Positions 2,296 to 39,021 are shown, counted from the first letter of the stretch. The stretch: 41,040 bases of DNA from Moorena sp. SIO3H5 (GCF_010692395.1 NZ_JAAHHS010000023.1:721-41760); one strand, 5' to 3'. Translations and numbers: made by a program. The notes: a model not told the origin generated them from the sequence alone.

Positions 2296-2541
2296 ATGGC
2301 AGGTACAACTGGAGAACGTCCGTTTGGTGACATTATTACCAGCGTTCGTTACTGGGTGATTCACAGTGTTACTATCCCAGCCCTATTTATCGCTGGTTGG
2401 CTTTTTGTGAGCACTGGTCTGGCTTACGATGCGTTTGGCACACCCCGTCCTAATGAATACTTTACTCAAGAGCGGATGGAACTACCAATCGTTTCCGACC
2501 GCTACAATGCTAAACAGCAAGTTGAAGAATTTGCTCCATAA
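2296..2541 (+). CDS. psbE: Cytochrome b559 alpha subunit (PsbE)
   Basis: 81-aa product [56 protein letters not shown] matches the PsbE consensus. SD-like taggagg lies upstream. Confidence 0.95.
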
Positions 2542-2567
2542 GGTTTTTTAGATAAAGGCAGACAATC

Positions 2568-2702
2568 ATGACTAGCAGTAATCCCAATCAACCAGTTTCT
2601 TATCCGATTTTCACGGTTAGATGGTTAGCGGTTCATACCCTAGCCGTTCCTTCAGTATTTTTCTTAGGCGCGATCGCAGCCATGCAATTTATTCAACGAT
2701 AG
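2568..2702 (+). CDS. psbF: Cytochrome b559 beta subunit (PsbF), 44 aa
   Basis: Manual translation gives [44 protein letters not shown], the canonical PsbF. It is too short for the ORF track. Confidence 0.9.
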
Positions 2703-2713
2703 GAGAAGCAATT

Positions 2714-2833
2714 ATGGATCGGAATTCCAATCCCAATAGACAGCCGGTTGAACTCAATCGGACGTCTCTTTACTTAGGTCTATTACTGATTTTTGTGCTT
2801 GGTATTCTGTTTTCTAGTTATTTCTTCAATTAA
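2714..2833 (+). CDS. psbL: Photosystem II protein PsbL, 39 aa
   Basis: [39 protein letters not shown], in frame inside track ORF 2621..2833. Matches the PsbL consensus. Confidence 0.9.
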
Positions 2834-3088
2834 CTGATTTAACAGATTCGTCTAAATCTCCATCTTAGAGAAGGCTAGGATGTAGACGGGAAAAGACTCT
2901 TAGTTAATTCCCTGGTAATTTCCGGTTAATCGGGAATTTACTAATTTGCTCCTGAAACGGAGTTGGACAAAACCCTTACCACTAGGGAGGCTTTTCAACA
3001 AAATCACTAGTTATTAAGACTAGTTATTAAGCCTTCTATCGTTAACTGCATCTAAAAAAAACTTGATTTAAAATTGGAGGTATAAGCT

Positions 3089-3208
3089 GTGTCTGGAGGG
3101 GGAAGAATTCCTTTATGGATAGTTGCCACTATCGCTGGTACTGGTGTCCTCGTAGTGGTTGGTCTTTTCTTCTATGGTGCCTATGTGGGAGTTGGTTCTT
3201 CGATGTAA
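3089..3208 (+). CDS. psbJ: Photosystem II protein PsbJ, 39 aa, GTG start
   Basis: ggagg SD followed by GTG, then [39 protein letters not shown]. Matches the PsbJ consensus (..EGRIPLW..FFYGAY.GLGSS.). Confidence 0.85.
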
Positions 3209-3309
3209 AGTAGACCAATTTCTTTGGTTAACACCCCGGCGAGGTTACCTCGCCCACTGGAAGGTTCACCAATAGAAAGACGCTAAATTAAAAACGAAGT
3301 AAATCCACA

Positions 3310-3359
3310 GGTGCGCTCTTACCATTAAGAATTTAATTATTAATGGCAAGAGCGCACCT
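3310..3359. terminator. 20-bp-stem hairpin (AGGTGCGCTCTTACCATTAA ... TTAATGGCAAGAGCGCACCT) between convergent psbJ and the CPBP gene. It is also copy 1 of the GGTGCG..GAATTTAATTC..CGCACC element family.
   Basis: Near-perfect inverted repeat with one G-U wobble. A T9 run lies about 35 nt downstream on the + strand (3396-3404). The T-tract is not adjacent, so it is not a textbook intrinsic terminator. Confidence 0.5.
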
Positions 3360-3425
3360 AAGCATAATCGCTGGTTTAACTTGAGCTGGCGGTATTTTTT
3401 TTTGGTAATTAGCTTTTAAGACTAG

Positions 3426-4271
3426 CTAATTCGACAACATCAGTAATAATAAAGCCCCAACTCCCAATAAACAAAGAAGACCAACTATCCCAGCTAACGG
3501 TTTTCCTCCCAAACCCGTTATCCAAATTGGTCCACTGCCTGTGTAAGCAATTAATTCAGCTGAGTCCAAGCAAGTTAAACCCCAAATCCAACCAGCATGT
3601 AGTCCCCATGCTAAACCCAGACTGCCTCCATCCACCCAACGGGCTAGGACTAATACCATTCCCATTAGCCATAATCCTGGTAACTGAGGGATAGTATCTT
3701 TTTGTTCCCAAACTAGGTGTAACAGGGCAAAAATCCCACTAGAGATGGCTGCTCCTACCCCGATAGAATACTCCTGCTTTAGTTGATTCACTAAGAAGCC
3801 ACGAAAGACTAACTCTTCTGTAACCCCAATCCACAGACCTAATAACATCACTGGGAGTAATATCGGTACCAAACGCTGCCAATTTTCAGAATTCCAGCGC
3901 ACCCAGCCTAGTAATAATTGCCCAGTAAATACTATGATTAAGCTGAAAATACCTACTCCTAGTCCCAATCCTAAAGACCCTAAAACGCTTAATTTCCACT
4001 CCAATCCGTAATCGGAGAAAGGCACCCCCTCTAGTTGAGAAGCTCCCCATAAAATTAGGGGAGCAATTAGGTAAAGTGCTGCGAGTAGTGGTAACTTTTG
4101 GCCTGGTGCTAAAGGCTGATTTGGACGCCACTTTAAAAGTATAGCTATAGGGAGAGCTAAGGGCAGCCAGAAAACTACCCAAGCTAGGAAAAAAGTTCCT
4201 AGCTTCAAAATAGTAGTTGAAGTGATTAATGACACAAACGACCCATTAGTTGCCTGATCAAGAATAGCCAT
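3426..4271 (-). CDS. CPBP family intramembrane metalloprotease (CAAX protease / Abi domain). ATG start at 4271 is preferred over the upstream TTG at 4286.
   Basis: Multi-TM protein carrying the CPBP motifs EExxxR (TEELVFRGFL) and FxxxH (FALLH). Confidence 0.75.
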   Translation of the reverse strand: MAILDQATNGSFVSLITSTTILKLGTFFLAWVVFWLPLALPIAILLKWRPNQPLAPGQKLPLLAALYLIAPLILWGASQLEGVPFSDYGLEWKLSVLGSLGLGLGVGIFSLIIVFTGQLLLGWVRWNSENWQRLVPILLPVMLLGLWIGVTEELVFRGFLVNQLKQEYSIGVGAAISSGIFALLHLVWEQKDTIPQLPGLWLMGMVLVLARWVDGGSLGLAWGLHAGWIWGLTCLDSAELIAYTGSGPIWITGLGGKPLAGIVGLLCLLGVGALLLLMLSN

Positions 4272-4454
4272 TGGCGAGATTTGCAAATTGCTATCAAATT
4301 ACTATCAAATTACTATAAGGTCTCAACTACACTACCATAAGCGGCTGCTTTTTTCCCATAGCAAGTTACCTAACGAGATAGTAAATCGGGCTGGTTAATA
4401 ATAGCCTGGTTTACCGACTCCTCAGGTAGTAGAAAGAAGATTTTTGTTTCTACC

Positions 4455-4500
4455 GGTGCGACAATCACGCGAATTTAATTCTTAATGGTAAGAGCGCACC
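4455..4500. repeat. Copy 2 of the GGTGCG-N-GAATTTAATTC-N-CGCACC palindromic element
   Basis: ccGGTGCGacaatcacgcGAATTTAATTCttaatggtaagagCGCACC. It shares the outer 6-bp stem, the central GAATTtAATTC palindrome and the ttaatggtaagagcgcacc arm with 3310-3359. Confidence 0.6.
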
Positions 4501-4588
4501 TATAATGGTTTTCACAAAGCAAATTAGGGGCCAAATCTGCCCCAGGGTTTGGATTTAAGCTCTAGGTTCTGGTGTGCCGGAAACGAAA

Positions 4589-4672
4589 CCTTAGTAGAGT
4601 GGAGCCTTAGTTAATAAGTTTTGACCCTTTTTCTCATAGCCAGTCCCCTGTAAAGGCTCCACTCTACTTACG
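4589..4672. repeat. Inverted repeat with ~20-bp arms and ~44-nt loop in the CPBP upstream region
   Basis: Arm ccttagtagagtggagcctt pairs with aaggctccactctacttacgg. Confidence 0.5.
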
Positions 4673-4931: not shown

Positions 4932-5232
4932 GCAAGCTTATATCCCCCGGATCAATCACGGGGGCTTTACCCATCACGTCGCCAATAAATTGTTCAAAGC
5001 TCACGTCCCCAAAGAATCTTCATGGGGAGGCGTCGCTCGCCCCACACTGTCGTTTTTCATCCCCGCTCCCTTAGAGACGGGGGTTTCAAACTCGCAGGAT
5101 TTTCTGTAAGAAGGATTACTTCAAAGCAGTGCGACCCCACGCTTTTTTTTAAGCGAAGCGTGAATGCGCACCAATAGAGCGAAGCGTGAACACACACCAA
5201 GTTGCTGCTTTCTTTGCTTTGTGAGTAGATAC

Positions 5233-5616
5233 CTATTCAGCTTCAGAATCGCCATCCACCTGCTTAAGATGGATATGCTTGTAGCCTAGTTTAATTTCAA
5301 ACTCATCACCAGGCTCTAATCCCATGGACTGAGTGTAGGTTGAACCAATAACAATTTGACCATTCTTATGGACACTCACACGATAAGTCGGTTCACGCCC
5401 CCGACCATCTTTTGTGCCTTCTGGATCCAGGGGAACACCCTTGGCTCCTAAAACCGCATCATAAAAATCTGTTAAATTGACGCGGGTCTGGTCTGTTTTA
5501 GTTATAGTGTAATAGCCGCAACGCTTGGCTGTCTCTCGGCGAGGCAAGTGTGATAGCTCTTTTACTTTTTGAAGTAATGCTTTACCAGTTAGGGGAGTAG
5601 TTGAAATCTCTGGCAT
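5233..5616 (-). CDS. Cyanobacterial AbrB-family transcriptional regulator (cyAbrB / CalA-like) with C-terminal SpoVT/AbrB swapped-hairpin domain
   Basis: N-terminal LTGKALLQKVKEL...KRCGYY..TK.DQTRVNLTDFYDAVLGAKGVPL and C-terminal YRVSVHKNGQIVIGSTYTQSMGLEPGDEFEIKLGYKHIHL match the cyAbrB clade. About 127 aa, the typical size. Confidence 0.8.
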   Translation of the reverse strand: MPEISTTPLTGKALLQKVKELSHLPRRETAKRCGYYTITKTDQTRVNLTDFYDAVLGAKGVPLDPEGTKDGRGREPTYRVSVHKNGQIVIGSTYTQSMGLEPGDEFEIKLGYKHIHLKQVDGDSEAE

Positions 5617-7535: not shown

Positions 7536-9338
7536 TCAAGCTGTCTTACCATTGGGGAAAGAGCTATGGGGCTTTGGATTTGCTATTTGGCCATGACTTC
7601 CTGCTCGGGGAAGGTCTTGCTTAGCCATAGCTTCACTGATGTATATTTCCTGCTGAGGCAGTGGGATCACGATCCCCTCTTGTTCAAATCTTTCTTTTAT
7701 AATTCGGCTGATGTCACAATAGGCTGTCCAATAATCTTCCTTCTTAGTATAGGCCATAAACCAAATGTTAACAGCATATTCAGCCAATTCTCCAGTGTCG
7801 ATCCAAGGGCCAGGGTCTTTCAATACTAAAGGATGAGTGTTGGCAATATCCTTAAGAACTTGGATCGCTTGAGTAATACTATTGCTGTAGCTGATCCTTA
7901 CGGTGATGAACATAGCGCGGACGGAGCTACTGGTTTCGTTGGCAATAACATTACCCCAGATTGAGTTGTTCGGTACGATAATGATTTTATTTTCCAAAGT
8001 ATTGATGGTGGTGCAAACTAAGTTGACATCCTTCACCGTACCTTTTACCCCAGCGACTTCAATCATATCCCCCACGTCGAAGGGTTTATAGAGCAAGATC
8101 ATTAACCCATTAGCAAAGTTACCAAGGGTATTTTGGAACGCAAAGGCTACCACAAAACCAGCAGCTCCAATCATGGCCATCAGTGGACCAATACTGACCT
8201 CTAGGGCAGTGATACCTAAAAGAATACCCACCAAAAATAATCCTTGGCGGGTTATCCTAACTACGAACTGACGCAGCATAGCTGACATATTCGGGAACAT
8301 CCACAAAGATTTCTCGAGGACTTTCCCTATAATCAGGGAGAGGATGCTAAAGCCAACGACGATTCCTAAAAATTTGCCAATGTTATTGGCCCAGCGCAGA
8401 CCTCCTTCTTTAGACTGGAGCCAGCCTACGATGGTAATCCAGGTTCCTTCAGTGTCAGTGACGTCAACCTTAATCCCACTGATAGCATCGATGTATTTGT
8501 TGTACAACTCAACATCACCGCCTTTAGTTTCCAGCTCTTCGAGTACCACCTCAAAGCGATCGCTTAAAGCAGTGCGTTCCTCTCGCAGTGTAGTCATGTT
8601 GACTAGCACTTGCTTTTTAACTTCGGTTTTGGCCTCGACCGCTTCTTCTAGGTCATGCTTGGCTTTGTCAATTCCCTGTCCAGTCTTTTTCTGCTCTTGT
8701 TCATCAGTAACGATTTTGTTGCTAATTGTCCCGATCTTATCTTGAACCTTAGCAACATCCTGGTTTGAGGTTTTGGCTTTATCTTTCTCCTGTTCAGTAC
8801 CTTCAACTGCTTTATCAATCGCCCCTTGCAAAGTTTGATCTTGCTTGGTCTTTTCCTCTTCTTTGACTGCTTCTTCTACTGACTCCTGAGCTTTTTCGAG
8901 AGCTTCTTGTGCTTCTTGTGCAGCTTCTAAAGCTTTAAGGCGATCCTTAGCCGAGCCGTCAGTCTCTGTTTTTTGCTTAGTATCTGTCGCTTCCTCAAGA
9001 GCCTCTTTGGCATCTTCTAGGGCATCAACAGCTTCTTTAGTTTGCTCAAGCTCTCGATTTTTGCGCTTGACAGCAATTTCAGCATCGCTAAGTTCTTTAA
9101 CTTTAGTTTTAAGCAAGAACATCCACGCCTCAGCTTCACCATCCAGCTCATCCTTAGTCAAAGGCTTGAGCATTAGCTCTAGCTCCTCAATCGGAATAGT
9201 TGGATCGTCAGTAGTAACGGCTTTCTCTAAGGCTAAATTATTAGTGGTCTGTTTAGCTTGGACAGGTAACCACCATGCCCCAACCATTAAGAGACTGCCA
9301 AACAAAATGTTAATTTTCTTTTGTCGGTAACGAATCAT
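7536..9338 (-). CDS. Mechanosensitive ion channel, MscS family, with signal peptide and long N-terminal E/K/A-rich coiled-coil (MscK/KefA-like) domain
   Basis: C-terminal MscS core (…GNFANGLMILLYKPFDVGDMIEVAGVKGTVKDVNLVCTTINTLENKIIIVPNNSIWGNVIANETSS…). The N-terminal ~300 aa are helical and charged. ATG start at 9338. Confidence 0.8.
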   Translation of the reverse strand: MIRYRQKKINILFGSLLMVGAWWLPVQAKQTTNNLALEKAVTTDDPTIPIEELELMLKPLTKDELDGEAEAWMFLLKTKVKELSDAEIAVKRKNRELEQTKEAVDALEDAKEALEEATDTKQKTETDGSAKDRLKALEAAQEAQEALEKAQESVEEAVKEEEKTKQDQTLQGAIDKAVEGTEQEKDKAKTSNQDVAKVQDKIGTISNKIVTDEQEQKKTGQGIDKAKHDLEEAVEAKTEVKKQVLVNMTTLREERTALSDRFEVVLEELETKGGDVELYNKYIDAISGIKVDVTDTEGTWITIVGWLQSKEGGLRWANNIGKFLGIVVGFSILSLIIGKVLEKSLWMFPNMSAMLRQFVVRITRQGLFLVGILLGITALEVSIGPLMAMIGAAGFVVAFAFQNTLGNFANGLMILLYKPFDVGDMIEVAGVKGTVKDVNLVCTTINTLENKIIIVPNNSIWGNVIANETSSSVRAMFITVRISYSNSITQAIQVLKDIANTHPLVLKDPGPWIDTGELAEYAVNIWFMAYTKKEDYWTAYCDISRIIKERFEQEGIVIPLPQQEIYISEAMAKQDLPRAGSHGQIANPKPHSSFPNGKTA

Positions 9339-9557: not shown

Positions 9558-10019
9558 CGTTGAGTGTCAACAGTTGCTCCCCCCATTACCCCCGAAGATC
9601 GGCAGAGCTGTTTCATTTTCGATTTAGACTTAGGGGGGCAGAGTAGCAGAGCAGCGGAGCCGAATTATCCGCAAATATTCGGTTTTGACAGAATTTATCC
9701 CTTTCTAATTCTCTATATCTAACCCTGAAATGAAGAAGCCGGGGGTAGTCAACACTCACCAGTAAACAAGGTATAGATAGCGTTTTATTGGTTCAAATTG
9801 AGCCATGTCCTTATTGTTGCCCAAGATTTTCCATCAATAAACATCTTGAACAAAAATTTTGCAAAATCTTTGCTGAATACCCACTCTGCTTTTATCACAT
9901 CTTTATTTCCCTGGCTGATAATTAATTATTCATGGCTGGTATCATCCATAGCTTATTTATCGGTAATGGTATATTTACCAGCCGCATTTGGTATAATTCG
10001 CTTCTGTAAAATTCGGTAA

Positions 10020-21383: not shown

Positions 21384-23702
21384 TTAGGTATTATTAAGGA
21401 TATCGTGCAAAATTTGGAGACTATTACGAAACTTTACAGTGTGAGGATGATCTGACCCTAACTTCTTTTCTGCAATCTCCAAAGCCTGGACATAGAGCGG
21501 TTCTGCCTGATGGTAAAGTCCCTGAGTATAGTAGAGTCGAGCCAGGTTGTGGAGACTGCTGGCCACATCGGGATGGTTGTGACCCAGCAGCTGCTTTGTC
21601 ATCTCCAAAGCTTGTTGATAGAGGGGTTCTGCCTGATAGTAGCGTCCCATTGACCAGTAGAGATTTGCCAGGTTGTTGAGACTGATGGCCACATCGGGAT
21701 GGTCTTGACCCAGCCGCTGCTTCAACAGCTCCAAAGCCTGTTGATAAAGGGGTTCGGCCTGGTGATAGCGCCCCATTGACCAGTAGAGTGCACCCAGGTT
21801 GTTGAGACTGGTGGCCACATGGGGATGGTGTTGACCCAGCCGCTGCTTTCTGATCTCCAAAGCCTGTTGATAAAGGGATTCGGTCTGGTCATAGCGCCCC
21901 ATTGACTTGTAGAGTGCACCCAGGTTGTTGAGACTGGTGGCCACACGGGGATGGTATTGACCCAGCCGCTGCTTTCTGATCTCCAAAGCCTGTTGAAAGA
22001 GGGGTTCGGCCTCATCATAGCGCCCCATTGACTGGTAGAGTAAACCCAGATTGTTGAGACTGGTAGCCACATCGGGATGGTTCTGACCCACCAGCTGCTT
22101 TCTGATCTCCAAAGCCTGTTGTAAGAGGGGTTCGGCCTCATCATAGTGCCCCATTGAATTGTAGAGTAAACCCAGATTGTTAAGACTGGTGGCCACATCG
22201 GGATGGTTCTGACCCAGCAGCTCCTTTCTGATCTCCAATGCCTTTTGAGAGAGGGGTTTGGCCTGGTCATAGCGCCCCATTAACCAGTAGAGTAAACCCA
22301 GGTTATTGAAACTTCGGGCTACATCGGTATGTTCCTCACCCAGGCGGCTTCTAGTTATCTCTAAACATTTCTCATACCAAGGTTCAGCCTGGTCATAGAT
22401 ACCTTGATCGTCATAGAATTTTCCTAAGACAGTTAAGAGGGATGGTAAATCTTCATCCCTGAGCCAGTTAGTTAGGACTGTGGCAGCTTCGGCTAAATGA
22501 GGGATGCTGAGATTAACTACTGCAATCTGATCTTGAGTTGGTGTCTCAGGAATTTCCTGGGCTACAGCCACCATTGCCTGACAAAAGCTTTGCTTGTAGC
22601 TATCGGCCTCTGGTAATTGATCGAGTTTGGTCTGGAAAAATTCTCGAATTAGTTGATGGACTTGATAGGTTTGTTTTTCGGTCAGTTTCAAGAGATTACG
22701 ATTGACCAGAAAGCGATCGCGTAATTCTTCTAATTCTTCTTGTTCTTCTTCCCATTCCTCCTCATCGTCCGTTTCGATAACACAAGACTCTACCAGTGAC
22801 CACTCAAAAGGAGCTTGAGCAAACAGACTCAGACGACATCCCAACTGCTGGGCTTCTGGAAAATCTTTCAAATCTTCCCAGGATAAGTCAAAGGCTGCTG
22901 CGACTCCCAACTGGGCTGTCACTTGCCCTTGTTCTTCTTGAGAAAGTAATGCCTTTGCTGCTAATTTCTTTTTCTCTAAACGTTTCTGAACTTTAGCAAT
23001 GGTTAAACTCGGATGTAGATCTAAATATCGTCCTACTAACTCCAAGCCCAAAGGTAAATAACCCAACCATTCACATAGGGCTTCTGCTTCGTTTAGTTCG
23101 TTATCAATGCGCTCTTTTCCAACAAGCGATCGCAATAATTCCAATGCTGCACCAGGTGCTGCTTTTGGCGAAAGTACATCCAAGTCAATTCGTTGGTACG
23201 AAGCTCCTGGACGCTGACGACTGGTAACCAGTACTTTGAAGCGGGATTGGGCTGGAGGCAAATAGGGTTCAATTTTATCTTTATAGTCCTTCCCGAAAGA
23301 AGGAACATCATCGAGCACAATCAATACTGTTCCTTCTGGCCAATTTCTCCAGCAGTGTTCTACCTGTTGTTCGTTTAACTTTAGTTTATCGGGAATGGTT
23401 AATCCTAATTTAGTACGGGCAAAACTGACAATCTGAGTCCCGAGATCTACACCGCGCACTGGAAACCAGCACAACCCACCAGGATACTTATCCTGATATC
23501 TAAGTGCATATTGTAGAGCTAACTCAGTTTTGCCCACACCACCCATTCCAGCAATGGCACAAATCACTAATCGATCCGTCTCTTGAAATTCCCGACGGAG
23601 CTGCTCAAGTTGATCTTCCCTACCAACAAAGTAGGGAGTGCCACGATTAATAATGTTACTGGGGGGATTTAACTTTGTCCGTTCCCGGTCGGACGACTCC
23701 AG
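21384..23702 (-). CDS. STAND NTPase body: NB-ARC (AP-ATPase) domain plus about 8 tandem 42-aa TPR repeats. The reading frame is open up to 23702 but has no ATG/GTG/TTG upstream of the GTG at 23567. It is separated from the next ORF upstream (23703-24143) only by a single in-frame TAG.
   Basis: ...YFVGREDQLEQLRREFQETDRLVICAIAGMGGVGKTELALQYA (P-loop) ...LIVLDDV (Walker B)... then repeated ..NLGLLY.SMGRYDEAEPL.QQALEIRKQ.LGQ.HPDVATSLNN.. units. My codon-by-codon translation of 23568-23702 finds no stop and the same frame as ORF 23703-24143. Confidence 0.75.
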   Translation of the reverse strand: MESSDRERTKLNPPSNIINRGTPYFVGREDQLEQLRREFQETDRLVICAIAGMGGVGKTELALQYALRYQDKYPGGLCWFPVRGVDLGTQIVSFARTKLGLTIPDKLKLNEQQVEHCWRNWPEGTVLIVLDDVPSFGKDYKDKIEPYLPPAQSRFKVLVTSRQRPGASYQRIDLDVLSPKAAPGAALELLRSLVGKERIDNELNEAEALCEWLGYLPLGLELVGRYLDLHPSLTIAKVQKRLEKKKLAAKALLSQEEQGQVTAQLGVAAAFDLSWEDLKDFPEAQQLGCRLSLFAQAPFEWSLVESCVIETDDEEEWEEEQEELEELRDRFLVNRNLLKLTEKQTYQVHQLIREFFQTKLDQLPEADSYKQSFCQAMVAVAQEIPETPTQDQIAVVNLSIPHLAEAATVLTNWLRDEDLPSLLTVLGKFYDDQGIYDQAEPWYEKCLEITRSRLGEEHTDVARSFNNLGLLYWLMGRYDQAKPLSQKALEIRKELLGQNHPDVATSLNNLGLLYNSMGHYDEAEPLLQQALEIRKQLVGQNHPDVATSLNNLGLLYQSMGRYDEAEPLFQQALEIRKQRLGQYHPRVATSLNNLGALYKSMGRYDQTESLYQQALEIRKQRLGQHHPHVATSLNNLGALYWSMGRYHQAEPLYQQALELLKQRLGQDHPDVAISLNNLANLYWSMGRYYQAEPLYQQALEMTKQLLGHNHPDVASSLHNLARLYYTQGLYHQAEPLYVQALEIAEKKLGSDHPHTVKFRNSLQILHDILNNT

Positions 23703-24143
23703 CTAATCAGACCCTTGATGAATATGTATCTCTTGACCAAAATAATTAGTACCACCCTCAATATTGTCAATATTGTTTTGTAAACCTTTACCGTTGTCAT
23801 TAACATTCATAGTCTTGCTGCTGTTGTCGTGTATCTTACCAGTATGAATTTCTTGAGCGATTGCCTGAATTTCTTTAGCAAACTCTGGTTGTTCATTCAT
23901 GATCACTTTCAAGTAATCAGCCACTCGTTCTAAATCACTCGAAGAGCCTTTTTCAACTGCCGTCAGAGCATTTTCAGCTTTATAATTATCCCGTAACTTG
24001 TCCCAGATCATTTTACGGAGTTCTTCCATCTTGGCGATTGCCGCTGTGGTGAAATGTTTGGCTAACTCCCCAGCTCCAGATTCCAGAAACTTCTTGAAAG
24101 CCAGAGTAGCGATCTCTGCTGCTGAAAGTATTGCTAGTGCCAT
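23703..24143 (-). CDS. Small all-helical N-terminal domain ORF (146 aa). It is probably the detached N-terminal adaptor or effector-associated domain of the STAND NTPase, in frame and interrupted by TAG 23703-23705.
   Basis: MALAILSAAEIATLAFKKFLESGAGELAKHFTTAAIAKMEELRKMIWDKL..., then a low-complexity N/G-rich linker before the stop. The downstream frame continues LESSDRERTKLNPPSNIINRGTPYFVGRED. Confidence 0.55.
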   Translation of the reverse strand: MALAILSAAEIATLAFKKFLESGAGELAKHFTTAAIAKMEELRKMIWDKLRDNYKAENALTAVEKGSSSDLERVADYLKVIMNEQPEFAKEIQAIAQEIHTGKIHDNSSKTMNVNDNGKGLQNNIDNIEGGTNYFGQEIHIHQGSD

Positions 24144-24495
24144 AAGCCAATAGAATCAAGCTGCTGTCTACTAACCAAGGTATACAATACTAAGTCTAAC
24201 AAACAGTTCTAAAAACGGATTAAATTTTAATAAAAAATAAGAAGCAATTAAATTGTTTTCAAATAAAATAACCGATTAAATTGTTTTCAAAGAATCTCAA
24301 AGAGTGTTTTGATCAACAGATATGCTCAGGATAGCATTTTCCACGAGATCATTAACCCTAATATAGTCACACCAAAAACTCCTCACTACTCTTGCCTCTT
24401 CCATTTACTCGTAAAAAAAACGCGATTATTTGAAAAAGACGCTACGCGATTGAACGTAGGTCAGACTAAGCGAACCCATTCCAAAATTCCCCTCT

Positions 24496-26281: not shown

Positions 26282-28144
26282 TCAGCTTTCCCCAACACAT
26301 CGATAAAGCTTATAACTATACTGACCAGCCCACTTAGAGCGCTTTTCTCGAAAACATTGCTGAGACTCTAGGTCAACTTTGGTACGGAAATTAACTAACC
26401 ATAAATCTAGTGGTCGTGGCAATTCATTTAATTGTTGTTGTAATTGTTGGACAGCATCCTCGTAACTGGAACTATTCCGGTCACGACCTACTAAGAAAAA
26501 TTGGGGAAAATCCCTGGAATTATCATTAGAACCATTAGCAACAGTCAGACCTTTCAATCCCCAAGCTAATCCCATCATGCGCCCGGTCTGTCCATGGTGT
26601 TTGTAGGTCGTTGCGATCGCAAGCGGTGCTTCACTTGCTTCCTTAAGAATAGACACTAGTAGATCCGGGCGCTCGTTTTGAAGATAACCAAGATTCGAGA
26701 CTGTCACTAATCCACCCAACAGCCCAATCAACCATACCGCTACCACTATCCTTTTGCCAAAGTAAGACTTATAGCTGTTTTCATCCCGATCAAGTACATA
26801 GGATTTTCTTCTACTTTCCTGTGTTCCCCTCCTGGGAGGGGTTAGGGGTGGGTTCCTGCTCCCTGCTCCCTGCTCCCTGTTCCCTGTTCCCTGTTCCCTG
26901 TTCCCTGCTTGTGCAACAAGTCTAATCTGATTCCAACAACCACCTAAGCTTGCTGCCACCAACAGGATCACTCCTGGAAAGTAGACGAAGTGAAAACGGG
27001 GGGCTGTGCTTAAATCTATACCGAAACCCCAGGTCAAGACTAAACATAACCCAATTGCTGCTAAGACATACTCCCTTAGGATTGTGATAACGGAACGGTT
27101 ATGGTGATCGAGTTGCTGTAATTTCAGTCCATAGCGGAGATGGGATACTATCCAAACCACTAGGATTAAGGTAACTATACCGGAAACAATAATAATTCCT
27201 AGGGATAGGTCATAGAAAGAAGAAGGTAGCAGTAACACCATACTGAACAGCCATAGTAAAAATCGTCCTATGGGTTCAATCCATCGTGCGATCGCATTTT
27301 GGCTATAAATCCATTGGGTAGGGGGACTATCATGAATCGTTTGTAAGGCCGGTATCCACACTAAACATCCCGCTAAGGAACCCATAGCTACTCCATAAAT
27401 TCCCCACCAGTAAGGTTTGATCAAAGCTAGTCGGTCTTGCTGAGTTTCTCGCCAAGCTTGTCCCAATAATGCGATCGCTTCCGCACCTAAAGTCAGGATA
27501 AAGAAATAATGGGTAGCAATGCCCAGACTATTCACTCCCACCCACCCTAACCCTAGCCAACTGGGCAACCGTTCACCACAGTCGATTAACTCTACCGCTT
27601 TCACCAAGCAACCGAGAGATGCTATCACTAGCACAATAGCCAGAGTATAATGACGAGCCTGTTGAGCTAGGAAAATCCCGAAAGGGGAAACAGCCATCAT
27701 TGCTGCTGCTATGTGACCTACCAATAGTGAGCGAAAGGCCAGCCGACCTAGGCAAAAGATAGCAGGAATCGAGATTACTCCCAATAAAGCAGAAAGCGAT
27801 CGCACTGCCCAAATCGAAACTATACCATCCTCTAATGGGAATAGTTTTAGCCACAGATGGGTCAGAGCAAAATAAACTGGGGGATGGGTACTTTCCGTTA
27901 ATAAATAATGAATAACATTACTAATGCCAGCATCAGGAGACGGTTGTAGTGGGCTTAATAGGGTGTCTACTCCCATAAACTGATTCAGAGGTAACGAGTA
28001 AAAACTGTTACCCAAGCTAAATACTGTTGTCGCACATTCATCAGTCCAAGGAGGTAAAACCCCTAAACCAGCAAAGCGCAGCAAAGTCCCAATCGTAATC
28101 CACAGCAGCAATAATAAAACAGTTTGGGATTTTTTTAAGTACAT
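26282..28144 (-). CDS. Polytopic glycosyltransferase of the GT39 / ArnT-like (dolichyl-phosphate-mannose protein mannosyltransferase-like, GT-C) type
   Basis: About 11 N-terminal TM helices with loop motifs typical of GT-C/PMT-like enzymes, plus a soluble C-terminal domain. Assigned from topology and general similarity; moderate confidence. Confidence 0.6.
   Translation of the reverse strand: MYLKKSQTVLLLLLWITIGTLLRFAGLGVLPPWTDECATTVFSLGNSFYSLPLNQFMGVDTLLSPLQPSPDAGISNVIHYLLTESTHPPVYFALTHLWLKLFPLEDGIVSIWAVRSLSALLGVISIPAIFCLGRLAFRSLLVGHIAAAMMAVSPFGIFLAQQARHYTLAIVLVIASLGCLVKAVELIDCGERLPSWLGLGWVGVNSLGIATHYFFILTLGAEAIALLGQAWRETQQDRLALIKPYWWGIYGVAMGSLAGCLVWIPALQTIHDSPPTQWIYSQNAIARWIEPIGRFLLWLFSMVLLLPSSFYDLSLGIIIVSGIVTLILVVWIVSHLRYGLKLQQLDHHNRSVITILREYVLAAIGLCLVLTWGFGIDLSTAPRFHFVYFPGVILLVAASLGGCWNQIRLVAQAGNREQGTGNREQGAGSRNPPLTPPRRGTQESRRKSYVLDRDENSYKSYFGKRIVVAVWLIGLLGGLVTVSNLGYLQNERPDLLVSILKEASEAPLAIATTYKHHGQTGRMMGLAWGLKGLTVANGSNDNSRDFPQFFLVGRDRNSSSYEDAVQQLQQQLNELPRPLDLWLVNFRTKVDLESQQCFREKRSKWAGQYSYKLYRCVGES
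26820..26930. repeat. Heptamer STRR tract (CTGCTCCCT/GTTCCCT)x8 plus the CCCCTCCTGGGAGGGG palindrome, embedded in-frame inside the GT39 CDS
   Basis: The ORF reads through it and encodes ...QAGNREQGTGNREQGAGSRNPPLTPPRRGTQESRRKS... between the TM domain and the C-terminal domain. Confidence 0.8.
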
Positions 28145-32547: not shown

Positions 32548-34572
32548 ATGGAATCTCTTCTGAATGTTCGATTTTCCATTAACCCTTTCCCAAGGGTTAG
32601 GTTTCAGCGTTCCTTGGGATTGGTTTTGCTAGGTGTACTTACCCTACTGCTCACCCTATTACCATGCTCTACCTTAGCACAGGAATCTTTGGCAAATGGC
32701 ACTAAGAAAGCTCCTGTGGTAGTGGATGGTATTGAATTATTTCAAGTGGGCAACGCTGGCAACTTTAGCGCTACTGAGCGAGCCAATCTGATCAATCAGC
32801 GCTTAGCAAGGGAGGTGAAATCCCCACAAAAACCTAAGTATGTGGACATTGAATATGTCGGGCAAAACGAGGGGATTCTTCGTACCAAGTTTACCGAGCG
32901 CATTCTGGTCACCATTACCAAGGCCGATCAAATTCCTGATACTGATCCTCTTGAGCAAGCCCAGAAATGGGAGAAGCTGATTGAAAGGGCAATCCGGCAG
33001 GGCAAACGACAGCGGATGCCAGATTATAGTCGTCAGGCAGTAAGGTTTACAGCCATAGTGCAGGTGTTGTTAATGCTGTTGTACTTGCTGTTACGCTTCT
33101 TCAGGCAATTTGCCTTGCGGAAACTGACCTCTTGGCTAGGGAATCCGGCTTCGCCTTTTTTCCCTTGGCATGACCCAGCCAAATTATTTCTGGGGGCAGC
33201 CCTGTTAGGTTTACAGCTTATCCTGTGGACTACAGCGATCTTAACCATTAGTGACCTATTTCCCCAAGTTCGCAGTTGGCGTTATGACCTGTTAAACTTC
33301 CTCAAGTCTCCTGTCATTGGTGCAGGAGAAAGCAAGTATTCTGCTATCCAAGTGCTGCTGTTGGTGGTATTAACCGTTGTGCTATGGTTTGTGGTTAGTG
33401 CCCTCACCAGGCTATTGAGGCGTTACGTCTTGGGCAAAAGTGGCGCTGATTCAGGGGTGCAAGAGGTTATTGCTATCCTGACCCAGTATGTCCTGACATT
33501 TTTGGGCATGATTATCATACTGCAAAGTTCTGGGTTGGATTTGAGTTCCCTAACCATTTTTGCCAGTGTCTTAGGGGTAGGAATTGGCTTCGGTGTGCAA
33601 AATATTGCTAACAACTTTATCAGTGGCTTAATTATCACCCTAGAGCGACCGATTCAACTGGGGGATTTTATTAAAGTCAACGATTTGGTGGGAACTGTGC
33701 AGCGCATTGGTTCCCGCAGTACAGAAATTTGCACCTTGGATAAAGTGACAATAATTGTGCCCAATGCCCGGTTTTTAGAAACTGAGGTGATTAACTGGAG
33801 TCACGGTAACCCGATTTCCCGGCTCAAGATTCCTGTAGGAGTGGCTTACGGATCTGATGTGGAGCAGGTCAAGAAGGCACTGTTGGCAGCTGCCAAGAGT
33901 CACCCGGAAGTGTTACTGAGGCCCTATCCCCAAGTTTGGTTTCAGGAATTTGGTGAGAGTTCCCTCAACTTTGAGCTGTTGGTCTGGACTGGAGACCCCA
34001 AGCGGCAGCCTAAAATCAAAAGTGACTTGAACTACCGGATTGAGAAAAGTCTGCGTCGCCATGATATCCATATACCATTTCCTCAACGGGACCTCCATGT
34101 GCGATCGCCTCAGTTAGAGAAATTGCTCACGGCTTGGCTGGGGGAGCGTCAGCCAAAACCGCCAGAAAACCAACTCTATATTCCTAATGGATATCAGTCT
34201 GAGCGGCCCACCCAAGATGCTTTAGTTTCAGGTTTCCTAGAGCCGATGGATGAAGTAGATCTAGATTCTTACCCTACGGCTCCTTTGCAAGAGGATATGG
34301 TAACACTAGACATTGAAACCTTGGTCGAGGAAATGCGTCAACCAGGAGGATTGGATATTAAAGACCGTCGCTATCGTCTCAATAGCTATGGATGCTGTTT
34401 TGTTGGCTCAGAAGCCGTAGATTGGTTGGTAAAACGGTGTAATTCTACTCGGGAAGACGCAGTAACTGTTGGACAGATACTAATTAATAGAGGTATTATT
34501 CATCATGTCGCAGATGATCATCCTTTCCGGGATGATTATTTGTTTTACCGTTTTTATTTAGATGAGAATTAA
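32548..34572 (+). CDS. MscS-family mechanosensitive channel with N-terminal signal peptide and periplasmic domain, and a C-terminal DEP domain
   Basis: MscS core (…ASVLGVGIGFGVQNIANNFISGLIITLERPIQLGDFIKVNDLVGTVQRIGSRSTEICTLDKVTIIVPNARF…). The C-terminus RRYRLNSYGCCFVGSEAVDWLVKRCNSTREDAVTVGQILINRGIIHHVADDHPFRDDYLFYRF matches the DEP (Dishevelled/EGL-10/Pleckstrin) consensus, including the terminal FKD..LFYRF. Confidence 0.8.
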   Translation: MESLLNVRFSINPFPRVRFQRSLGLVLLGVLTLLLTLLPCSTLAQESLANGTKKAPVVVDGIELFQVGNAGNFSATERANLINQRLAREVKSPQKPKYVDIEYVGQNEGILRTKFTERILVTITKADQIPDTDPLEQAQKWEKLIERAIRQGKRQRMPDYSRQAVRFTAIVQVLLMLLYLLLRFFRQFALRKLTSWLGNPASPFFPWHDPAKLFLGAALLGLQLILWTTAILTISDLFPQVRSWRYDLLNFLKSPVIGAGESKYSAIQVLLLVVLTVVLWFVVSALTRLLRRYVLGKSGADSGVQEVIAILTQYVLTFLGMIIILQSSGLDLSSLTIFASVLGVGIGFGVQNIANNFISGLIITLERPIQLGDFIKVNDLVGTVQRIGSRSTEICTLDKVTIIVPNARFLETEVINWSHGNPISRLKIPVGVAYGSDVEQVKKALLAAAKSHPEVLLRPYPQVWFQEFGESSLNFELLVWTGDPKRQPKIKSDLNYRIEKSLRRHDIHIPFPQRDLHVRSPQLEKLLTAWLGERQPKPPENQLYIPNGYQSERPTQDALVSGFLEPMDEVDLDSYPTAPLQEDMVTLDIETLVEEMRQPGGLDIKDRRYRLNSYGCCFVGSEAVDWLVKRCNSTREDAVTVGQILINRGIIHHVADDHPFRDDYLFYRFYLDEN

Positions 34573-35940: not shown

Positions 35941-38900
35941 TTACTCTTCAAACTCCTTAATTGTTTTCATGTATTTTTTTGATGCTCCTTCAGATAATTG
36001 AAGTCTTTGTTCTTTTTTAATGCGAAAATATTCATTATAAACTTCCTGACTTTCTTTCTGCTCAAGTAAATAATCATAAGGACCTTTACCAGACAAAAGT
36101 TTAACTAATATAGGTGAGATTTCAATAGTGACGAATAAGGCAGTTATTAGCCAATTAATATTACGAATATTCGGATCGTCTTTAGATAACTCTTCTAAAG
36201 CAACAAGACGAGCTAAGAAGCCATAGGATTTTTTGTCAATTTTTTCTTGATTCAGTTGTTCTAAGTTACTCTCTGGTGACTGCAAAATAAGATTACGTTC
36301 TTTAAGCTTATCTATTTTATCCTCTTTCTCCTTAACTTTATTATCTAATTCAATAAATTTTTGTTTGATCTCATCTGCATAGTTTCGTTTGTCTTGATAA
36401 ACAATTCCTTTTCCAAGTTGGCCTGTTCCCTGTGTACCTTCTGCTTCTGCATTAGCCGCATATTCTGCATTTTGCCATTCATTTTTGTACTTATTTTTTT
36501 CTATATTTAAGGCTTGAATTTCTTGCTCTAGGTCTTTTATTGGTTCGGTAAGTTCTTCTTTGGATAGTTCATTTTTATCTTGTTCTATTTTCTGGTTAAT
36601 TTCTTTTTCAAAGAGCCTCAACTCAAGGGGTTTAGCAACCACAAAGCTTAACAATAATGCTATTAACAATCGAAGACTTGTTGCTGCAATAAATGGCAAA
36701 TTTAAATTTAAGTCCGTTTCTTTTCTCTTAGAGCTTAAAATTAAAAAACGATCTAAGTTAAAAACTATAAAACTCCAAAACGTTCCTCCTAGACAAGAAG
36801 CTGCTACAGAACCAAATACTGTAAAAAGAGCATAACCACCGGAAAAAATAGCCGTTGTTGATGTTAGCAGAACCGTGGTACCAATTGCTGTATATTTATA
36901 TCGTTCTGTCAAACATTCTTTTTGTGCCAAAATGTGATGATCTGCACCAGCACACCATAGCAAAAATTTTTCTAGTGAATTTAAATTATCGTTAATTGTT
37001 GGAGTCTGTATTAGGTGTTGAAGTTCAGCTGGTAAGCCAATTTCGTTTATAAAAGTACCAACCCCTTCAACACCATAAGTATTCAGAGCACTTTTGATAT
37101 ATTCTGTAGCTCTTTCCTGAATTTGCTCCCGTTGTTGTAAGAAGTCTAAAGCATTATAGTCTTGAGCGGAATTACGGAAGTAATTACCAACCATCGATGC
37201 TAAGACCCTATTCACAAGGTTTTTAATAGAGCTATATTTAACCGCACCCTTAGACAAGGGGCTAAGAACTCCTCCTTCTTCCTCAACTTGCTGAAAACTA
37301 TGAGCATTTGGTGAACCCACACGAGAGATCATTTTAGGAGAATTGTTGGGAGCAATATTAATAACCTGGGTGACTTCAAGATTCAAAATAAAGCCATCTT
37401 TTGAGCGAAGCTTTAATGTGTTCAAATTAGAATCATAGTTGGTTGCTGGTTTATCTCTATTCGTCCAGTCCAAAGTTATTTCATGGGCAGGAACTATTAC
37501 TATATTTTTAACTCTTGTATTGATAGGATGTGTTCCCGCTTCTATTGGTATGTTTTGAATCCCTTTATACCCAATTGGAACGATATTAAACTGAGAACCA
37601 TAAGTATTTTGCTCTTGATTGGCGTGGCTATTCTTACCAACATTGGAGATTAAAACTCCAACTGTTCCAGTTTTAATATTAGTTAAAGGAACTTGTTCAA
37701 CTTCCACAAACCAAGGATTTAAACTCCAAAAACCTTCTTCGATAAATTCTTCTTGTAAACCTCGATAGCCACTTTTGTCAATAAACTCCTGTGGCTCCTG
37801 AAACTTATTATGTCCCTCAATAACTGGTCCTGCAATCTCCCCTCTTGGTAAGGGCTTACCATCAAAAGTAGTAACAATACCAATTTTACCTGATTCAACT
37901 CTGTAAACTTTTAATTGTTCTGGTTTCAGTCCATATTGCTTGGCATTGTCAGTAGTAACTACTGTAAATATTTCAGTGTTTATTCTATAGGAACCTTCAG
38001 TAAGAATTGTGCGCTGTTTACCTTGTTGACCACCGTTGTTGACAAAGGCTTCAGCATTCTGAAAATTATCGCAATCTACAGCTTTACCTAGTATTTGTCC
38101 TGGTGGTAGTTCAGCACCATCTTGAGCAATAACTAGCCCTATCTCCCCTGAGCGAATATTAATTACTGGGACATTATTAACTTTAAACAACTCTGTATTA
38201 ATGTAGTGAGTTCCAGGAGGAATAATTCCTAATTGGTTCCCTTGTTGACCGCCGTTTTTGATAAATGCTTCAGCGTCCTGAAAAGTGTCACATTCAACAA
38301 CTTTACCAAAGTTCTGACCAAGTGGAAGTGGCTGACCATCCCTTGCTTCCACTAACCCTACTTCATTAACTCCAATTTTGATAAGTTCAACTCTCTTAAT
38401 TTTGAAAAGTTCTGTATTAATTGCGTATTTGCCAGTAGTAATAATCTTTAACTGTTGTCCCCTATATCCCCCATTATCAATAAATGCTTGAGCGTCTTCA
38501 AAATTGTTGCATTCAACAGCATCACCAAAGGTTTTTCCAATCGGAAGTGGCTTGCCATCTTTCGCTTCTACTAAGCCAATTTCATAGTCATTAATATGAA
38601 TAATTTTCCTGATTTCAACAGAAAAAAGTTGAGTATTAATCCGATAAATACCATTTCTTAAAATGCCTAACTGCCTACCCCGTTGACCACCATTTTTGAT
38701 AAAAGCACGACCATCTTGAAAGTCATCACATTCTTCGATAACTTTCCCAAAAATTTTACCTGTGGCAAGAGAAGCACCATCGTTGGCGGTTACTAATCCA
38801 ATTTCATCTTTATCAATATGTATAGCCATTTGTTTAACAACTTTATAGCTCAAAGGAGAGTGGAAATGTCTTCCAGGACCAAGAGTATCAACCTGCCAAC

Positions 38901-39021
38901 CCATTTCTCCATTAAGAGCGATTTGACGATTAGATGGTAAAGGACTACCAAACTTTTTATAGACAATTCCAACCTCATCTTGAGAGATTACATAAACGCC
39001 AGGTGCCCGATCAATTGCCAT
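35941..39021 (-). CDS. Large (1026 aa) membrane protein. It has an N-terminal SPFH-start-like module plus about 6 tandem ~73-aa repeats, then an SPFH/band-7 (flotillin-like) core, then 2-3 TM helices, a long K/E-rich coiled coil and a terminal hydrophobic helix. It is AT-rich relative to the genome.
   Basis: Repeat consensus E[IV]G[LI]V.A.DG.PLP.G..FGK.VEC..FQDA.AF[IV].NGG..G.QL.I[IL]..G.Y.INTELF.V occurs 6 times (residues ~72-520). Residues ~560-690 (..DGFILNLEVTQVINIAP..NRVLASMVGNYFRNSAQDYNALDFLQQREQIQERATEYIKSALNTYGVEGVGTFINEIGLPAELQ) resemble the C-terminal half of SPFH domains. TM segments YTAIGTTVLLTSTTAIFSGGYALFTVFGSVAASCLGGTFWSFIVF and LPFIAATSLRLLIALLLSFVVA. ATG 39021 with a GGAG SD 9 nt upstream. 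Confidence 0.6.
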   Translation of the reverse strand: MAIDRAPGVYVISQDEVGIVYKKFGSPLPSNRQIALNGEMGWQVDTLGPGRHFHSPLSYKVVKQMAIHIDKDEIGLVTANDGASLATGKIFGKVIEECDDFQDGRAFIKNGGQRGRQLGILRNGIYRINTQLFSVEIRKIIHINDYEIGLVEAKDGKPLPIGKTFGDAVECNNFEDAQAFIDNGGYRGQQLKIITTGKYAINTELFKIKRVELIKIGVNEVGLVEARDGQPLPLGQNFGKVVECDTFQDAEAFIKNGGQQGNQLGIIPPGTHYINTELFKVNNVPVINIRSGEIGLVIAQDGAELPPGQILGKAVDCDNFQNAEAFVNNGGQQGKQRTILTEGSYRINTEIFTVVTTDNAKQYGLKPEQLKVYRVESGKIGIVTTFDGKPLPRGEIAGPVIEGHNKFQEPQEFIDKSGYRGLQEEFIEEGFWSLNPWFVEVEQVPLTNIKTGTVGVLISNVGKNSHANQEQNTYGSQFNIVPIGYKGIQNIPIEAGTHPINTRVKNIVIVPAHEITLDWTNRDKPATNYDSNLNTLKLRSKDGFILNLEVTQVINIAPNNSPKMISRVGSPNAHSFQQVEEEGGVLSPLSKGAVKYSSIKNLVNRVLASMVGNYFRNSAQDYNALDFLQQREQIQERATEYIKSALNTYGVEGVGTFINEIGLPAELQHLIQTPTINDNLNSLEKFLLWCAGADHHILAQKECLTERYKYTAIGTTVLLTSTTAIFSGGYALFTVFGSVAASCLGGTFWSFIVFNLDRFLILSSKRKETDLNLNLPFIAATSLRLLIALLLSFVVAKPLELRLFEKEINQKIEQDKNELSKEELTEPIKDLEQEIQALNIEKNKYKNEWQNAEYAANAEAEGTQGTGQLGKGIVYQDKRNYADEIKQKFIELDNKVKEKEDKIDKLKERNLILQSPESNLEQLNQEKIDKKSYGFLARLVALEELSKDDPNIRNINWLITALFVTIEISPILVKLLSGKGPYDYLLEQKESQEVYNEYFRIKKEQRLQLSEGASKKYMKTIKEFEE

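Follow-up and report, generated by a model that had tools for sequence, protein, structure and literature searches.

How is a nucleotide-binding receptor made when its reading frame has no start codon of its own and lies in frame behind the stop of another gene? The question arises at a locus of Moorena sp. SIO3H5, at positions 21384–24143 of a stretch of 41,040 nt (GCF_010692395.1 NZ_JAAHHS010000023.1:721-41760; hereafter the window, with coordinates counted from its first nucleotide). On the minus strand of this locus a single in-frame TAG separates a small open reading frame (ORF) from an NB-ARC/TPR protein of the STAND NTPase class, referred to below as the NLR. Comparison of the locus with its relatives in cyanobacterial genomes and metagenomes points to programmed stop-codon readthrough as the probable answer.

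Layout of the locus and conservation of its stop

The small ORF, counted from its ATG, runs from 24143 to 23706 on the minus strand, encodes 146 residues and terminates at the TAG at 23705–23703. The 45 codons that follow (23702–23568, minus strand; translation LESSDRERTKLNPPSNIINRGTPYFVGREDQLEQLRREFQETDRL) are in the frame of the small ORF and contain neither a stop nor an ATG, GTG or TTG. From the TAG the frame runs on for another 772 codons, to a TAA (21386–21384, minus strand). The first canonical start past the TAG is a GTG (23565–23567, minus strand, referred to by its first nucleotide as GTG 23567), which falls within the NB-ARC domain, six residues ahead of the P-loop. The Pfam NB-ARC profile (PF00931) aligns from position 2 to position 227 with residues 29–248 after the TAG (22959–23618, minus strand; E = 5.7e-12), with the Walker A sequence GMGGVGKT at residue 51. 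The match begins 17 codons upstream of GTG 23567, so a start at this GTG would remove the N-terminal part of the NTPase domain. A sequence-only reading of this DNA had described the 146-residue ORF, the single TAG, the 45 open codons without a start and the loss of the N-terminal NTPase part from a GTG 23567 product, and the coordinates bear out each of these.

The NB-ARC domain is followed by a TPR sensor region (21387–22328, minus strand) that matches TPR_12 (E = 5e-126) and TPR_10 in Pfam. Tandem Repeats Finder resolves a 126-nt × 6.8 array in it (21475–22331, 86% matches), corresponding to near-identical 42-residue repeats. Near-identical repeats have been reported for rapidly diversifying NLRs. 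The PF00931 and TPR_12 matches and the Walker A motif agree with the assignment as an NB-ARC/TPR STAND NTPase made in the sequence-only reading. The likeness to Avs-type antiphage proteins in NTPase and TPR logic, raised there, found no counterpart: in PADLOC, the NLR part matches generic TPR models only, with no match to an Avs family.

The small protein is 100% identical to a protein of Moorena sp. SIO3H5, and a search of 5.8 billion proteins returned 72 close homologues, every one of them a stand-alone protein of 97–163 residues. We collected 80 genome loci through the small protein alone. In 28 of these loci the stop of the small gene is followed in frame by L[EQK]S[SP]xxxR[TA]K.NP and an NTPase, with no canonical start for 30–40 codons; they belong to Xenococcus, Scytonema, Tolypothrix, Fischerella, Mastigocoleus, Richelia, Pseudanabaena, Leptolyngbyales, Phormidesmis and others. 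The TAG and an identical downstream element are present in four Moorena assemblies (the window and three others, including M. producens). When genomes and metagenomes were pooled, 52 distinct junctions from at least five cyanobacterial orders had a stop at this position. The arrangement of stop, absent start and shared frame is more than chance, because the same layout recurs in these 52 junctions and the TAG is identical in the three other Moorena assemblies. Loci of this type constitute a recoding-type cassette, conserved and widespread among the NLR cell-death systems of cyanobacteria.

The stop and its 3′ context are strongly biased. The 52 junctions use TGA (47) or TAG (5) and never TAA; the +4 base is C in 48 and G in 4, never U or A; and the codon after the stop is CTA in 24, CTG in 20, GTG in 3, CTC in 2, and CCG, CCA and GTA in one each. 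The last sense codon before the stop is free to vary, with 16 different codons among the junctions. Among the ordinary stops of the same gene family, TAA occurs in 7 of ~50 loci, a difference from the junctions with a one-sided hypergeometric p of ~0.005 when related junctions are treated as independent. Readthrough decreases in the order UGA > UAG > UAA and is suppressed by a +4 U (PMC5289835). Since TAA and +4 U are both absent, the choice of stop and its 3′ context fit a leaky stop.

The RNA pseudoknot and the coding sequence after the stop

Nucleotide alignment of the junctions revealed a constant order of elements downstream of the stop: an 8-nt spacer with the consensus CUR-NAG-UC, a 5-bp hairpin, a 9-nt A-rich linker and the 3′ arm of a second stem. 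In the window (all on the minus strand) the spacer is CUGGAGUC (23695–23702) and the hairpin is GUCCG-ACCGGGAA-CGGAC, in which the stem-1 5′ arm GUCCG (23690–23694) pairs with the 3′ arm CGGAC (23677–23681). A GGGA within the hairpin loop (stem-2 5′ arm, 23683–23686) pairs with the UCCC at 23664–23667 (stem-2 3′ arm). The A-rich linker from stem 1 to the stem-2 3′ arm is AAAGUUAAA (23668–23676), with a nearly invariant AAAG. The element is a compact H-type pseudoknot of ~31 nt, with stems of 5 and 4 bp, that starts 8 nt after the stop; this spacing is exact in all 52 junctions. In its size and A-rich linker it recalls luteoviral frameshift pseudoknots, and the linker may make minor-groove triplex contacts.

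Both stems vary in sequence and keep their pairing. Stem 1 occurs as GUCCG/CGGAC, GCCCG/CGGGC, GUCGG/CCGAC and GUCAG/CUGAC, as well as in G-U variants, and stem 2 as GGGA/UCCC, CGGC/GCCG, GCGA/UCGC, CGGA/UCCG, GGAG/CUCC, GGGAGC/GCUCCC and GGGG/CCCC. Pairing statistics were made on 29 sequences and then on 41 distinct sequences. In the larger set 87% of cells are paired, compared with 79% in column shuffles (none of 500 shuffles reaches the observed value), 19 cells carry double changes where 4.5 are expected, and sliding the partner by 1–3 columns reduces pairing to at most 51.5%. Stem 1 is paired in 92.7% of cells, with compensatory double changes at two positions. For stem 2, three of the four pairs have changes on both sides, and the complete four-pair helix forms in 43 of 48 sequence types. 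Permutation of the partners across distinct sequence classes reached neither the 57 of 60 possible pairs observed for stem 1 nor the total of 154 for stem 2 (0 of 5000 permutations in each case). The MAFFT and covariance-model alignments place three groups of loci out of register by one or more columns (L032/74/77, L012/23/78/79 and L060/61/65), so pair counts taken from the tool understate the pairing. In the linker that the element encodes, the compensatory changes entail radical substitutions (Ser/Pro with Thr/Ala, Arg to Pro, Pro to Ala), so it is the RNA, and not the peptide, that is under selection.

A scan of metagenomes used the pattern GTCCGNNNGGGAACGGACAAAG, which covers stem 1 and its loop and excludes both the stop and the stem-2 3′ arm. 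The scan returned 30 loci, 22 of which have a TGA exactly 8 nt upstream and CCC at the stem-2 position, together with an upstream MEP.. ORF of 133–187 residues and an in-frame NLR downstream. The other eight share none of these traits; they are chance matches to unrelated sequence. The stem-2 3′ arm is thus present in 22 of 22 genuine matches and in 0 of 8 chance matches. Searched with a covariance model of the first 29 junctions, 846 kb of collected sequence yielded 44 sites; one is in the window (23640–23714), and L085 and L019 each have a second. In the viral contigs scanned the motif has no occurrence, and the Rfam covariance models (window positions 23300–24300, E ≤ 10) gave no relevant match, only a spurious flavivirus hairpin elsewhere. 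We consider the RNA motif and its link to the stop well supported and very likely to be real.

At two loci (L054 5400–5415 and L056 4599–4650) TGA-CTAGAGTCGT.. is kept and the rest of the pseudoknot and the downstream ORF are lost; these are apparently decayed remnants. At one junction ARAGORN reports a 'tRNA-???' on the opposite strand (L033 5369–5459, minus strand), its anticodon four bases long and its span exactly over the stop and pseudoknot, an odd call that is probably spurious.

The pattern of change past the stop is that of a frame-0 coding sequence. Between the pseudoknot and the usual first start (nt +45 to +111 after the stop), differences between close relatives number 41/49/88 at the three codon positions, and synonymous to nonsynonymous codons number 63:72 in frame 0 and 15:122 and 19:117 in the other two frames. 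Purifying selection is seen on both flanks of the stop. In the window the linker comprises codons 1–28 after the stop (LESSDRERTKLNPPSNIINRGTPY...; 23619–23702, minus strand), part of which is encoded by the pseudoknot, and has no start codon. No ATG, GTG or TTG lies between the stop and the FVGR-type motif in 33 of the 41 junctions that have this motif. NB-ARC profiles begin 29–37 residues after the stop in every case tested; the first canonical start comes 21–56 codons after the stop in most loci, at a position that varies among them. The part of the linker past the pseudoknot (..PPNNIPYRGVxNFVGR..; ..SSPPNNIPYRGVANFVGR) is homologous to the N-terminal linker of classical NLR partners, which translate it from an ATG of their own.

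These classical partners make up most of the collection. At ~50 of the 80 loci the small gene ends in an ordinary stop, and the gene after it, which starts from a Shine-Dalgarno sequence and an ATG of its own, repeats the motif of the small protein at the N-terminus. In a Nostoc pair, for example, the first protein ends ..NQDNAKGWQTKVEGGTVYQGEINIH* and the second begins MNQSNQDNSQGWQNQVGGGTVYQGEINFY..QLQSSPPNNIPYRGVANFVGR, the two genes overlapping by ATGA. A profile search of 1.84 billion representatives returned mostly proteins of ~140 residues and a few stop-free fusions, two of which (P0106 and P0107) have the order Bell-BASS9-NB-ARC-TPR (the Bell and BASS9 assignments are described below), so that a fusion protein is a viable architecture. 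The ..ERTKLN.. insert encoded by the pseudoknot is absent from the classical pairs and from P0106 and P0107; the pseudoknot insert therefore occurs only together with the stop.

The small protein, predicted readthrough and its alternatives

The small protein appears to belong to a Bell-domain family with a BASS9 amyloid signalling motif, and its family is a proposed membrane-targeting cell-death effector. In the AlphaFold2 model, six helices span residues 8–101 (pLDDT, the per-residue model confidence, 83–90) and are followed by a disordered N/Q/G-rich tail (pLDDT ~40). Its 146 residues, and the 135–163 of its homologues, suit the Bell type, a short protein of ~120–140 residues with a helical bundle of ~100. 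The model, the homologues and Table S2 of Dyrka et al. together support a Bell-like helical domain with a hydrophobic N-terminal helix at residues 1–104 (23832–24143, minus strand). The family consensus of the tail, NNYDNAxGWQTKVEGGTxYIGEIH, equals bass_09, MTQNNSDNAKGWQTKVEGGTAYI, a motif listed at residues 110–132 of Bell-domain proteins that are paired with NLR N-termini (Dyrka et al., Table S2, 10.1101/2020.01.06.895854). The window copy, TMNVNDNGKGLQNNIDNIEGGTNYFGQEIHIH, is N/Q/G-rich and occupies residues 111–142 (23718–23813, minus strand). The family N-terminus has the consensus MEPxTLTAxxIATLAF, and the 40+ upstream ORFs at the junctions all begin MEP or MxDP, matching the hydrophobic 'MEPIS' region described for Bell, Bab and Avast2 by authors who also note that Bell topologies are variable (10.1101/2024.11.07.622273).

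The small protein itself had no match in Pfam, NCBIfam, PADLOC or the PDB sequences, and a Foldseek search of the AlphaFold2 model against the PDB returned nothing below E = 1. Since a fold match was not found, membership in the Bell family rests on the match to the BASS9 table. The sequence-only reading had taken the N-terminal module for a death-like or effector-associated (EAD) adaptor whose partner effector may lie elsewhere. Foldseek yielded neither identity, and the family assignment makes the module itself the proposed effector. The ~24 residues between the window stop and FVGR hold no repeat of the BASS motif, which is repeated at the NLR N-terminus in the class-B relatives L009, L073, L075 and L080.

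We propose that one transcription and translation unit yields two proteins through programmed stop-codon readthrough. Most ribosomes would end at the TAG and release the 146-residue Bell-BASS9 protein, putatively membrane-targeting and carrying an amyloid-forming motif; this free small protein is almost certainly made. A minority would decode the stop with a near-cognate tRNA and stay in frame to give a Bell-BASS9-linker-NB-ARC-TPR protein of 919 residues. Readthrough would be favoured by the use of TGA or TAG and never TAA, by the +4 C with its CUR codon, and by the pseudoknot at the mRNA entrance of the ribosome. The sensor, which would exist only as the fusion, would in this way acquire the amyloid motif that it otherwise lacks, and the ratio of effector to sensor would be set by the efficiency of readthrough. 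Ligand sensing by the TPR region would lead to NB-ARC oligomerisation, bringing the N-terminal BASS9 motifs together to nucleate an amyloid fold; nucleated BASS9 would then template the excess free Bell-BASS9, which would kill the cell. These steps from sensing to death are modelled on the Bell/BASS and HET-S/NWD2 paradigm. Readthrough itself, its efficiency, the amino acid inserted, the templating and the death of the cell are what we infer. On the sequence evidence we judge it reasonably likely that readthrough gives an abundant free effector and a rare Bell-BASS-NLR sensor.

Among the explanations that keep the stop functional, the closest contender is termination followed by reinitiation, or structure-assisted non-canonical initiation, at the adjacent CUG, CUA, GUG or another non-AUG codon. 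It would yield a separate NLR (LESSDRERTK...) without Bell or BASS9. The codon next to the stop is indeed CTG in 20 and GTG in 3 of the 52 junctions, one NCBI gene call begins the NLR directly after the TAG (L083, gene 2435–4603), and classical Bell/NLR pairs are often translationally coupled where a stop and a start overlap or adjoin, as in the Nostoc ATGA. However, in 29 of the 52 junctions this position holds CTA, CTC, CCG, CCA or GTA, none of them a known initiator, and the first 24 codons offer no other conserved start-like codon. The resulting NLR would be devoid of both effector domain and amyloid motif, in contrast to every classical partner and to the natural fusions, and the avoidance of TAA and of +4 U is predicted by leakiness but not by reinitiation. 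We regard this explanation as unlikely. Somewhat less likely still is an arrangement of two ordinary genes, with the NLR starting at its first canonical codon (GTG 23567 in the window) and the pseudoknot acting as a regulatory or stability element through pausing, an RNase site or coupling. Gene callers annotate such loci in this way, as a hypothetical gene of ~140 residues and an N-terminally truncated NLR ORF; most loci offer a canonical start 21–56 codons after the stop; and a promoter-like match (23770–23742) lies inside the small ORF. Against this, an NLR begun at such a codon would lose profile positions 2 to ~18 of NB-ARC, and with them the conserved FVGRxxEL helix. The first start is also not conserved in position, and the sequence that precedes it shows frame-0 coding evolution and homology to the linker that classical NLRs translate. 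Of the real two-part arrangement that the sequence-only reading had allowed for, the free small protein stands, and the other half does not, since there is no start codon that belongs to the NLR part.

Dedicated decoding of the stop, whether as selenocysteine at UGA with a hairpin resembling a selenocysteine insertion sequence (SECIS), as pyrrolysine at UAG or by a suppressor tRNA, is very improbable. A hairpin close behind UGA does resemble the bacterial SECIS, and TGA is the stop in 47 of 52 junctions, but the same element follows TAG in two independent lineages, the window included. In addition, the window and 47 related loci encode no tRNA with a stop anticodon (suppressor or selenocysteine), fused relatives have no Cys or other fixed residue at the stop position, Rfam gave no SECIS match, and the site lies in a variable linker, not a catalytic one. 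Ribosomal frameshifting or translational bypass over the stop might be expected from a pseudoknot 5–9 nt downstream, the classic −1 stimulator. We give it little more than negligible weight, as the downstream ORF is in frame 0, the last codons before the stop vary with no slippery heptamer among them, and no matching take-off and landing codons are conserved. Truncated downstream frames in some related loci would suit a non-functional locus, and the sequence-only reading had entertained a recently pseudogenised STAND gene or a sequencing error. We reject both, with next to no probability left for a pseudogene or a sequencing or assembly error: the stop is kept in four Moorena assemblies and in 52 junctions across orders, both flanks are under purifying selection, and the covarying RNA is tied to the stop. 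That reading had also proposed orthologous loci as a measure of whether the gene is contiguous elsewhere; the Moorena orthologues are not contiguous, with the TAG kept in three, and contiguous forms exist among the wider relatives as the stop-free fusions P0106 and P0107. Its remaining option, a stop-codon readthrough site, is the one favoured by the covarying pseudoknot at 8 nt, the leaky context and the coding signature downstream.

Several observations weigh against programmed readthrough, or against parts of it. A canonical start precedes the FVGR motif in 8 of the 41 junctions, in three of them as a GTG directly after the stop. The downstream frames of L006, L013, L035 and L077 are short or truncated, so some copies are decaying or misassembled. 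The shuffle-based numbers given above overstate independence, because the sequences are phylogenetically related. The pseudoknot is small (5 + 4 bp), and the folding energy of the window junction is unremarkable (z = −0.12), with a nested minimum-free-energy structure that differs from the proposed pseudoknot; such an energy is as expected for so small a pseudoknot, and the structural evidence is therefore comparative. A within-sequence shuffle of the 3′ segment for stem 2 is without power, because C-rich shuffles readily form a 4-bp helix, and partner permutation across sequences was used instead. The BASS9 copy of the window is divergent and has a 3-residue insert. The Moorena small proteins begin MALAILSAAEIATLAF (MALAIL, not MEP..), which is hydrophobic with no acidic residue at position 2–3. 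Support for readthrough is wholly comparative, and the readthrough product is itself a prediction. To our knowledge, pseudoknot-stimulated readthrough has not been demonstrated for any bacterial cellular gene, and because we know of no such precedent, the mechanism is argued by analogy with eukaryotic viruses.

Comparison with known systems and spread of the cassette

The nearest parallels to the junction are viral. Type II readthrough signals consist of UGA-CUA/CGG with a structure ~8 nt downstream, and the murine leukaemia virus (MuLV) signal consists of an 8-nt spacer and a compact pseudoknot (PMC3542737). Like MuLV gag-pol, the junction combines an in-frame stop, an 8-nt spacer with sequence preferences and a compact 3′ H-type pseudoknot, and it is predicted to give a short abundant and a long rare product from one pair of ORFs. 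Unlike MuLV, the host is bacterial, with 70S ribosomes and release factors RF1 and RF2, the stop is mostly UGA-C where MuLV has UAG-G, the pseudoknot is smaller (5 + 4 bp, ~31 nt), and there is no sequence similarity. The type II signals of alphavirus, tobravirus and coltivirus share UGA followed by CUA or CUG (CUR in 44 of 52 junctions) and a structure at +8 nt; theirs, however, are extended stem-loops in eukaryotic hosts, and here a pseudoknot lies in a bacterial chromosomal gene family. The junction resembles the bacterial SECIS in having an RNA hairpin just downstream of an in-frame UGA, and differs from it in the use of TAG as well (the window and 4 other distinct junctions), the variable linker, the lack of Cys homologues and the lack of an Rfam match. 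One mRNA also gives a short and a long protein in fixed ratio in the dnaX −1 frameshift (tau/gamma) and in the A1 readthrough of phage Q-beta, which relies on a leaky UGA. Unlike the junction, dnaX uses a slippery site and a Shine-Dalgarno-like element, and Q-beta A1 is a phage gene with no such local pseudoknot; neither serves immunity or cell death.

With the Bell/BASS gene pairs (Dyrka et al. 2020; Bab/Agp in E. coli, Ibarlosa et al. 2024) the locus shares the size of the small protein, the helical bundle, BASS9 and a collinear NB-ARC/TPR NLR. The family also shares the MEP.. hydrophobic helix (the window protein begins MALAIL) and has textbook-pair homologues in Nostoc, Nodularia and others. 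The locus differs from the pairs in that the NLR has neither a start codon nor a copy of the motif and lies in frame behind the stop and pseudoknot (in the window and 51 other junctions), the fusion taking the place of the second motif. The templating logic proposed here is that of HET-S/NWD2 and of the two-gene Bell/NLR systems. All-in-one NLRs (Bell-NLR, fungal HeLo-NLR, plant CC-NLR) have the same architecture as the predicted readthrough product, which exists stop-free in P0106 and P0107; the ORF here would in addition yield a surplus of the free death domain with its amyloid motif. The published BASS screen called for the motif at the annotated NLR N-terminus and makes no mention of stop codons or readthrough (Dyrka et al., 10.1101/2020.01.06.895854); owing to this requirement it would have missed the present class. 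In the literature searched we found no account of this arrangement, and nothing on stop codons, readthrough or recoding that concerned such systems.

The cassette extends beyond this combination of domains. It is found behind other Bell families with BASS5-like tails (KLADKI..QGN..), and it precedes a protein-kinase domain in Fischerella PCC 9431 (L042 5415–6941) and a NACHT NTPase at another locus (L037 5403–7175), so it is not tied to NB-ARC/TPR partners. One locus (L085) has two Bell-stop-pseudoknot cassettes 5.6 kb apart (3995–4069 and 9639–9713). In another (L019) a classical Bell/NLR pair (~5000–5420) is followed 3.7 kb on by a different Bell family with the BASS5-like tail KLAEKIGFVFQGG, a stop and the pseudoknot (9150–9215). 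P0089 (L114 1501–2682) is a Bell-BASS-linker-GUN4 fusion. A frame change has put its TGA, which persists, outside the reading frame (CA-TGA-G), and the pseudoknot sequence can still be made out with a single mismatch in stem 1; the protein represents a natural loss of the stop, with a partner that is not an NLR.

A broader reading of this distribution, which we put forward as a speculation with little chance of being right, is that the stop and pseudoknot form a modular bacterial recoding switch that has spread among Bell/BASS families and NB-ARC, NACHT and kinase partners, with a level of readthrough responsive to the state of the cell. Candidate inputs to such a switch would be release-factor or tRNA status, temperature, a ligand of a pseudoknot the size of preQ1-I, or interference of phage with translation, and translation fidelity would then set or trigger an amyloid-based suicide pathway.

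Pseudoknot-dependent readthrough signals are so far known mainly from eukaryotic viruses. If programmed readthrough does operate here, these loci would be the first bacterial cellular gene family known to us in which a dedicated covarying pseudoknot drives it, and would represent a third NLR/amyloid cell-death architecture beside two-gene pairs and all-in-one fusions. A single ORF would yield the prion-forming effector and a sensor with the identical motif, so that their ratio is fixed and no co-evolution of two motifs is needed. The actual NLR products would be absent from protein databases owing to truncated ORF calls. The compact motif, which is absent from Rfam, could be curated, and it could serve as a tunable two-product expression part in cyanobacteria.

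Some minor features concern the locus and its surroundings. The promoter-like match in the small ORF is sigma-70-like (TTGACA-17-AATTAT, 10/12, consensus match only); it lies at 23770–23742 on the minus strand, in the 3′ end of the ORF ~35 nt before the TAG, and overlaps the codons of the BASS9 motif. Within the TPR region, the repeat gives rise to a 182-residue 'shadow' ORF in another frame (21722–22270, minus strand). The TPR part (window 21387–22400) also scores 317.8 against the NCBIfam equivalog 'FxSxx-COOH system TPR protein' (cutoff 300 bits); the match covers the TPR repeats only, so automatic annotation could misname the NLR. Directly downstream of the orthologous NLR in Moorena sp. 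SIO1F2 (L082 7216–8436) lies an IS605 OrfB/TnpB gene (Cas12f-like), at the place where the window has an HtrA-type protease gene. Elsewhere in the window are an MscS-type channel with a C-terminal DEP domain (32548–34572), a 1026-residue protein with SPFH/Band 7 and DUF4407 (35941–39021) and a 620-residue ORF without a Pfam match (26282–28144). The remaining window genes are housekeeping genes: DnaK, NAD-dependent DNA ligase, Dus, the HtrA protease and a Ser/Thr kinase.

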